Below, piece by piece: positions 58,143 through 58,549 of a stretch of 64,000 nt of DNA. The position numbers and the translations under genes were made by a program. The notes beneath the pieces were generated by a model. That model was not told the DNA's origin. It made no database searches and saw only the letters and a program-made list of their open reading frames with translations. Numbering within the stretch: position 1 is the stretch's first letter; each line of letters begins with the position of its first letter. The stretch comes from Escherichia coli (GTDB lineage: Bacteria; Pseudomonadota; Gammaproteobacteria; Enterobacterales; Enterobacteriaceae). Location of the stretch: the NCBI RefSeq assembly GCF_003018255.1, contig NZ_CP027440.1; one strand, written 5' to 3'.

Positions 58143-58224
58143 CCGAGGTAAAGTCTCCCCAAACCAAATTTCCACGCGCTATCGAAACGCCACTCCATTA
58201 GCTGCAATTTGAGCAAGCAAAGGG

Positions 58225-58252
58225 TTAGAGTGTCTCGTTTTTGTAAAGTTCC
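58225..58252 (-). promoter_or_regulatory. sigma-E-dependent promoter of rpoE (autoregulated)
   Basis: Minus-strand GGAACTT, 16-nt spacer, TCTAA (cGGAACTTtacaaaaacgagacacTCTAAc), about 80 bp upstream of the rpoE ATG. Confidence 0.7.
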
Positions 58253-58525
58253 GTAACGCATCTGTTTTTGTTTGTCATGCTGTAGACGGATCATTATCTA
58301 TCATTATAAGTCTACAGAATCTGAACATCGCATTATCTGTGTAGAAATGCCCATTTAACTGCCTGAAGAGTAACCCAACGGCCTTTTTATTTCACCACCT
58401 AATCCTCCACCAGCCAGTAACTTCTCTTTTTCTCGCCGCCCTGAGTCAGCGTGTTTAGTCACTGTAACAAATATTAAAATAGCAGGTGTTTAATCGCACA
58501 ACATGATGCTATGCTGACCAAACCA

Positions 58526-58543
58526 TGTTTAGTAAATTAAACA
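58526..58543. promoter_or_regulatory. perfect palindrome TGTTTA-N6-TAAACA upstream of nadB (candidate NadR operator)
   Basis: tgtttagtaaattaaaca, 7 to 24 bp upstream of the nadB ATG; built from the TGTTTA NAD-box half-site. Confidence 0.4.
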
Positions 58544-58549
58544 AAGAAA

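Follow-up and report, generated by a model that had tools for sequence, protein, structure and literature searches.

Positions 58143–58549 of the analysed stretch of Escherichia coli DNA, which is 64,000 nucleotides long and is called the window throughout, fit exactly between two start codons that face away from each other: the ATG of rpoE, the gene for sigma-E, at 58142 on the minus strand, and the ATG of nadB, the gene for L-aspartate oxidase, at 58550 on the plus strand. In the RefSeq annotation of an identical locus, lepA, rseC, rseB, rseA, rpoE and rseD share a strand and nadB is encoded on the opposite one. The 407 bases are 100% identical to the same region of many E. coli chromosomes, occur as a single copy in 5425 of 5426 complete E. 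coli genomes, and differ from K-12 MG1655 at five positions (5/407), none of which is in the sigma-E promoter described below. In most of 80 rpoE loci fetched from other species, nadB is again the divergent neighbour. The nadB and algU genes (algU being the rpoE orthologue) of other Gammaproteobacteria are likewise arranged divergently, with a sigma-E-type promoter upstream of rpoE; outside the Enterobacteriaceae and Erwiniaceae, however, the intergenic region is shorter (about 180–260 bp) and carries no NadR boxes. The algU gene of Pseudomonas is also autoregulated.

In E. coli, the 407 bp between rpoE and nadB are a compact divergent control region that has already been well characterised, and an earlier, sequence-only reading of the window had correctly presented them as a divergent rpoE/nadB control region. 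The region is intergenic only in part: it does lie between the rpoE and nadB start codons, but the small gene rseD sits inside it. Both rseD and five further rpoE promoters (P1–P5) within the 407 bp had been overlooked. Our addition is a single coordinate map that brings together the six published rpoE promoters, rseD, the NadR boxes and the predicted nadB promoter (Table 1). For the two motifs that the reading had singled out, a sigma-E promoter and a NadR operator, we computed identity, position, uniqueness, conservation, and the fit to the published consensus sequences and to the mapped rpoE starts; sigma-E dependence and the binding of NadR at the nadB promoter are taken from the literature. 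An Rfam scan of 57900–58800 at E ≤ 1 returned no match. A simple scan of the region for sigma-70 promoters and terminators gave zero matches, a result that says nothing about promoters that are weak, of the extended −10 type or read by alternative sigma factors.

Table 1. Coordinates of genes, promoters and candidate regulatory elements in and around the rpoE–nadB region (positions in the window; published rpoE starts follow the numbering of a review)
Feature	Position	Strand	Details	Basis
rpoE coding sequence (sigma-E)	57567..58142	minus	ATG 58142-58140	ORF and translation; RefSeq annotation
Putative rpoE Shine-Dalgarno	58155..58160	minus	GGGGAG	sequence and conservation
rseD, 51-codon rpoE leader-peptide gene	58139-58294	minus		ORF; RefSeq 'rpoE leader peptide RseD'
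5' block of the sigma-E transcript	58211..58218	minus	GCTTGCTC	28-Enterobacterales alignment, MFE folds, duplex statistics
Sigma-E transcript start (published −75)	58217..58218	minus	C58217 or G58218	review mapped onto window
Sigma-E promoter rpoE P6 (formerly P2)	58225..58252	minus	−35 GGAACTT 58252-58246; 16-nt spacer; −10 TCTAA 58229-58225	pattern search, literature, conservation
rpoE P5	58295..58308	minus	−10 TATAAT 58308-58303 (perfect); start −153 = A58295	review mapped onto window
rpoE P4 (RpoS-type)	58360..58372	minus	−10 TACTCT 58372-58367; start −218 = A58360	review mapped onto window
rpoE P2 (sigma-54/QseF) and P3 (sigma-70/RcsB)	58469..58495	minus	shared start −327 = 58469	review mapped onto window
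Putative elements of P3 and P2		minus	P3 −10 TATTTT 58481-58476; P2 sigma-54 −12 TGCT 58484-58481	inferred from spacing
rpoE P1	58523..58536	minus	start −381 = G58523; only −10-like hexamer TTTACT 58536-58531	review mapped onto window
NadR-like box 2 (candidate site)	58452..58469	plus	TGTTTAGTCACTGTAACA; weaker, 2 mismatches	pattern search
Predicted nadB promoter, extended −10	58507..58515	plus	TGcTATGCT	TGnTATnCT conserved in 20 genera and within E. coli
Predicted nadB transcription start	58522	plus	conserved A, 7 nt after the −10	inferred from 20-genus alignment
NadR operator (NAD box 1)	58526..58543	plus	−24 to −7 from ATG; about +5 to +22 of the predicted start	unique exact match to the consensus; NadR binding in Salmonella; conservation
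nadB coding sequence (L-aspartate oxidase)	58550..60172	plus		ORF and RefSeq

The sigma-E promoter and the rpoE leader

A pattern search recovered GGAACTTTACAAAAACGAGACACTCTAA, which reads GGAACTT-N16-TCTAA, on the minus strand at precisely the coordinates given by the sequence-only reading, with 82 nt between the end of the −10 element and the rpoE ATG, where the reading had estimated about 80 bp. At a tolerance of one mismatch the motif is the sole match in the 64-kb window, compared to an expectation of 0.24; at the same tolerance, 18 of 100 shuffled versions of the window contained the strict pattern. The element agrees with the −35 (GGAACTTTT) and −10 ((T/C)GGTCAAAA) motifs derived from 28 mapped sigma-E promoters, which are preceded by A/T-rich DNA (Rhodius 2006). 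In the window, an A/T-rich tract (ACAAACAAAAACA) that includes a conserved AAAA block lies ~10–22 nt upstream of GGAACTT.

The same element has been described in E. coli as rpoE P2 (Raina 1995; Rouviere 1995) and, later, as P6 (Klein et al. 2016); the shared traits are the location ~75 nt from rpoE, the −35 and −10 elements with a 16-nt spacer and the positive autoregulation, and there are no substantial differences. According to reviews from the laboratory in which the region was mapped, this proximal promoter, designated P2 in 1995 and P6 since 2016, is recognised by E-sigma-E and is positively autoregulated. A review citing Klein 2016 gives its start as −75. Counted onto the window, this position is 7–8 nt downstream of TCTAA, so that the mapped start, against which the promoter had been proposed to be checked, fits. 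A count of exactly 75 leads to C58217, and a purine start at G58218 requires a one-base shift in the numbering used by the review. Other sigma-E promoters, such as rpoH P3, similarly combine GGAACTT, a spacer of ~16 nt, TCnAA and A-rich upstream DNA (Rhodius et al. 2006). The rpoE promoter departs from them in that its −10 is TCTAA, as opposed to the consensus TCAAA, in its location inside a small coding gene, rseD, and in the unusual conservation of the first eight transcribed bases.

The promoter is conserved far beyond E. coli. The pattern GAACTT-N16-TC, with at most one mismatch, precedes rpoE in all of the 75 gammaproteobacterial loci scored. In almost all of the ~25 Enterobacterales that were scored, 76–84 nt separate the longer form GAACTT-N16-TCnAA from the rpoE ATG; Aeromonas, Shewanella and Rheinheimera have it at about 62–66 nt, and Vibrio has it at about 100 nt. 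When 28 Enterobacterales are aligned, the cores of the −35 (GAACTT) and −10 elements are invariant and the spacer is free to vary. GGAACTT-N16-TCTAA is thus the published autoregulated sigma-E promoter of rpoE, its dependence on sigma-E being known from the literature, and the autoregulation that the reading had proposed is borne out both by the published accounts of P2 (now P6) and by conservation across the Gammaproteobacteria. In the scheme that follows from these accounts, envelope stress leads to the degradation of RseA, and the freed sigma-E initiates transcription at about 58217/8; firing of P6 then yields more rpoE-rseABC mRNA, a positive feedback on sigma-E, and the co-expressed RseA and RseB provide the negative feedback. 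A loose sigma-E-like sequence, GAACTT-N16-TCGAA, is also present at 62516–62542 on the minus strand, downstream of srmB, and may be due to chance.

P6 is located within rseD codons 15–24, and transcripts that start there therefore cannot encode full-length RseD. The rseD stop codon overlaps the rpoE start codon (ATGA, 58142–58139), and the overlapping TGA is found in 28 of 28 Enterobacterales; an ATG-initiated open reading frame in that frame, of 19–69 codons, is present in 17 of them. We considered and rejected the possibility that rseD encodes a conserved protein of 51 amino acids: only the C-terminal ~19–21 codons, a stretch shared with the conserved rpoE leader, are kept. As an ATG-initiated frame of 51 codons, rseD is not conserved outside Escherichia and Citrobacter, and the conserved C-terminal end of the product reads ..EWRFDxAWxxGLGRxYLG. 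A shorter frame of 19–21 codons, which starts past the sigma-E start, can be recognised in E. coli (Met33, ATG 58198–58196), Enterobacter cloacae, Serratia and Photorhabdus. Translational coupling between rseD and rpoE has reportedly been shown experimentally. GGA motifs at 58155–58160 and 58143–58145 fit the published CsrA sites over the Shine-Dalgarno sequence and the start codon of rpoE, to which CsrA binds according to a review.

The conserved 5' end of the sigma-E transcript deserves separate consideration. Its first eight nucleotides, GCTTGCTC, are near-invariant in the 28 Enterobacterales, and the flanking bases vary. They are complementary to rpoE codons 1–4 (GAGCGAGC, 58140–58133), and all minimum free energy folds predicted for the leader close with a GCTTGCTC–GAGCGAGC helix. 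Across the 75 loci, the pairing between the 5' segment and the start-codon region beats 95% of shuffles in 46, with a mean z of −2.3, and it is reached with different sequences in Enterobacterales, Aeromonas, Shewanella and Colwellia; the same duplex statistics gave no signal in Vibrio or Pasteurellaceae. When partners were swapped between clades, the native partner was favoured most clearly in Enterobacterales. RNAalifold found no consensus structure among 23 mixed sigma-E leaders, and the fold of the full-length leader of E. coli shows no gain in stability over shuffled sequences (z −0.77); the evidence for the pairing is therefore confined to the duplex statistics. Within Enterobacterales the start-codon side, which is coding, is invariant, so that no true covariation is seen there. 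Taken with these qualifications, the modelled pairing may represent a translational clamp on the autoregulated rpoE mRNA. If that is the case, the pairing of the 5' end with the rpoE start codon would constitute a translational brake on the sigma-E positive feedback loop.

The NadR operator and the predicted nadB promoter

The sequence-only reading had placed a palindrome directly before the nadB ATG and suggested that it might be a NadR operator. The inverted repeat, TGTTTAGTAAATTAAACA, consists of TGTTTA-GTAAAT-TAAACA at 58526–58543 and ends 6 nt before the ATG, as proposed. It is not the perfect 18-bp palindrome it had been taken for: seven of the nine base pairs are symmetric, six of them formed by the outer bases (6+6) and the seventh lying further in, and the symmetry is broken at positions 7/12 (G/T) and 9/10 (A/A), the central GTAAAT not being self-complementary. 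[quoted passage not shown] The exact consensus occurs once in the window and in none of 100 shuffles. Work on Salmonella has shown by EMSA and ChIP-qPCR that NadR binds at the promoter of nadB, that nadB mRNA is 8- to 10-fold higher when nadR is deleted, and that NadR is released from the DNA by ATP and c-di-GMP, with NAD restoring the binding.

The distribution of the site points in the same direction. In 20 genera, all of them Enterobacteriaceae or Erwiniaceae, a near-invariant 18-mer precedes the nadB ATG by 1–8 nt, and it is absent from all non-enterobacterial taxa examined (Vibrio, Aeromonas, Shewanella and others), a range that is consistent with the restriction of the DNA-binding domain to enterobacterial NadR. 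Nor does the box precede nadB in Serratia, Rahnella, Photorhabdus or Acerihabitans, and control of nadB by NadR is therefore not universal in Enterobacterales. Among the divergent variants sampled within E. coli, the box is invariant and the neighbouring bases vary. Its spacer, GTAAAT, is identical in 17 of the 20 genera and deviates only in an Enterobacter MAG, in Mixta and in one genome labelled as Klebsiella. Given the exact match to the consensus, the conservation in 20 genera and the binding of Salmonella NadR at nadB, the proposal was sound: the 18-mer is the NadR operator of nadB, the binding of NadR being known from the Salmonella literature.

The operators of nadA-pnuC and pncB in E. 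coli and Salmonella share the same 18-bp TGTTTA-N6-TAAACA layout within the promoter region of a gene of NAD metabolism. In E. coli, the nadA box (TGTTTAGCATATAAAACA) and the pncB box (TGTTTATTGTACTAAACG) have one mismatch each, which leaves the nadB box as the only one with the perfect consensus, and the three spacers differ (GCATAT, TTGTAC and GTAAAT in nadA, pncB and nadB, respectively). At nadA the box overlaps a −10-like TATAAA, at a distance of 72 nt from the start codon; at pncB it follows a TATACT −10, and 29 nt separate it from the start codon. The nadB box, unlike the other two, ends only 6 nt from the ATG, in a leader that has no Shine-Dalgarno sequence.

How NadR would act at this position depends on where nadB transcription starts. 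A simple sigma-70 scan yielded no −35/−10 pair for nadB, so that the predicted promoter is located by conservation, namely that of an extended −10; in Serratia and Aeromonas the homologous −10 block reads GCTAACAT or GCTACCAT. Text and literal-sequence searches of the literature found no experimental nadB start, nor is one listed in the supplementary data of Kim 2012, Conway 2014 or Ettwiller 2016. From the alignment of the 20 genera we infer a start at about 58522, and the operator, which lies 11 nt downstream of the conserved extended −10, would consequently occupy about +5 to +22. A DNA-binding repressor at such a site is expected to act on transcription; with the predicted start, the block at nadB would be transcriptional rather than translational. 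The suggestion that the operator is placed over the translation-initiation region is right as to the DNA that it covers, but not as to the expected action. At high NAD levels, NadR would occupy the 18-bp site with NAD as its corepressor, and there it would block either the binding of polymerase or promoter clearance and thereby repress nadB; ATP or c-di-GMP would release NadR from the operator.

Two further observations on nadB translation can be mentioned. The gene is devoid of a Shine-Dalgarno sequence in E. coli and in almost all of 18 other gammaproteobacterial taxa, and many non-enteric taxa have GATAC(T)TT-ATG, with the element directly before the nadB start codon. We dismissed a leaderless nadB, for which the literature search gave nothing relevant, as the conserved extended −10 makes a leader of ~28 nt more likely. 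A start-codon hairpin, AUGAAU/AUUCAU (z −2.3 in E. coli), was rejected as well, because its conservation already breaks down in E. albertii.

Two other explanations of the motifs have to be weighed. The inverted repeat could be mainly an RNA element of the nadB 5' leader that controls translation, such as a hairpin or a site bound by a protein or by the ribosome, and not primarily a DNA operator. With a start near 58522 the repeat would make up most of the ~28-nt leader of a gene that lacks a Shine-Dalgarno sequence, the leader is predicted to fold into a hairpin formed by the repeat, and the spacer is conserved beyond what an N6 consensus demands. The hairpin is weak, however, at about −3 kcal/mol by itself, and does not cover the AUG, and the second hairpin of the E. 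coli leader, which would sequester the AUG, is not conserved. Moreover, nadB lacks a Shine-Dalgarno sequence in almost every taxon examined, box present or not; as leaders of this type also occur without the box, translation does not require it. The site is explained by its exact match to a NadR DNA consensus, together with EMSA and ChIP evidence for NadR at nadB, and we regard the predominance of an RNA-level function as very improbable and any RNA-level role of the repeat as unlikely. The other explanation is that one of the motifs, or both, arose by chance and has no function. It could draw on the frequency with which the strict sigma-E pattern arises in the shuffled windows, and on eight other sites elsewhere in the window that have one or two mismatches to the NadR pattern. 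Against it stand the failure of the shuffles to produce the exact NadR consensus, the position of both motifs at conserved distances from their genes in many genera in which the flanking bases diverge, and the description of both in the literature, which together reduce its probability to practically nil.

We hold the two functional assignments, sigma-E promoter for the minus-strand motif and NadR operator for the inverted repeat, to be the best explanation of the region, with a probability of about 0.9. Both motifs are already known in E. coli, and the finding is correct and ordinary; its value is that of a positive control, in which a reading of the raw sequence placed both textbook elements to the base.

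Distal rpoE promoters and a second NadR-like box

Six rpoE promoters have been published, with starts at −381, −327 (common to P2 and P3), −218, −153 and −75 in the numbering of a review, and P1–P5 are read by sigma-70, sigma-54 and sigma-S. We counted these positions from the rpoE ATG onto the window, using the numbering of the review and not that of the primary paper. Every start, so numbered, lands 7–8 nt downstream of a plausible −10 element, which validates the mapping of the coordinates. The perfect TATAAT of P5 is conserved in Enterobacteriaceae. The start of this promoter, A58295, is 1 nt before the rseD ATG (58294), and P5 transcripts would therefore present rseD as an essentially leaderless open reading frame.

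A pattern search for NadR sites uncovered a second, weaker candidate, box 2, with its centre 74 bp from that of the operator before nadB (box 1). Of the 20 genera, 14 retain the left half of box 2, TGTTTAG, and the spacing between the two boxes, 73–74 bp or seven helical turns, is conserved in six genera. A third TGTTTA, at 58487, was dropped, as it is not conserved in other genera.

The location of the two boxes raises the possibility that they are shared operators, such that NAD-loaded NadR, in addition to repressing nadB, would act on P1 and P2/P3, the distal promoters of rpoE, and lower the expression of sigma-E from them. Under this arrangement box 1 would cover the −10 region of P1, and box 2 would cover +1 to +18 of P2/P3. 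The published starts, as numbered in the review, map accordingly: that of P1 (58523) is beside box 1, at a distance of 3 nt, and that of P2/P3 (58469) is the last base of box 2 and forms its edge. In addition, the only −10-like hexamer of P1 can be read directly from the sequence as a product of the box 1 spacer; this GTAAAT spacer is the same in 17 of 20 genera, even though the consensus has N6 and the nadA and pncB spacers differ, and the spacing between the boxes is retained in the six genera mentioned. On the other hand, a library literature search found no paper that links NadR with rpoE, box 2 departs from the consensus at two positions and its right half is degenerate, P1 counts as a minor promoter, and the rpoE start numbering comes from a review instead of the primary paper. 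The conservation of GTAAAT, for its part, could reflect contacts with NadR or the nadB leader devoid of a Shine-Dalgarno sequence. Repression of rpoE by NadR is, for these reasons, a tentative proposal that we consider rather doubtful. If true, it would link NAD status to basal sigma-E expression through NadR, and shared operators would also explain why the nominal N6 spacer of box 1 is near-invariant across about 20 genera.

Apart from the question of NadR, the sequence at P2 differs between strains. At the position expected for the sigma-54 −24 element (58495–58494) the window has GA, compared to GG in K-12, in which the expected site reads GG-N10-GC on the minus strand (TGGATAAACACCTGCT). 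At 58493–58495, the window and four other sampled E. coli variants have GA, GAA or AAA, not GG, and the exact 58-nt variant of the window around these positions is found in 518 of 5411 genomes. The RpoN/QseF-dependent promoter P2 of rpoE may thus be lineage-specific. As a separate observation on the window as a whole, sites with up to two mismatches from TGTTTA-N6-TAAACA number 10, compared to 1.95 expected, a ~five-fold excess that was reached in none of 100 dinucleotide shuffles; eight of the 10 are outside the nadB region.
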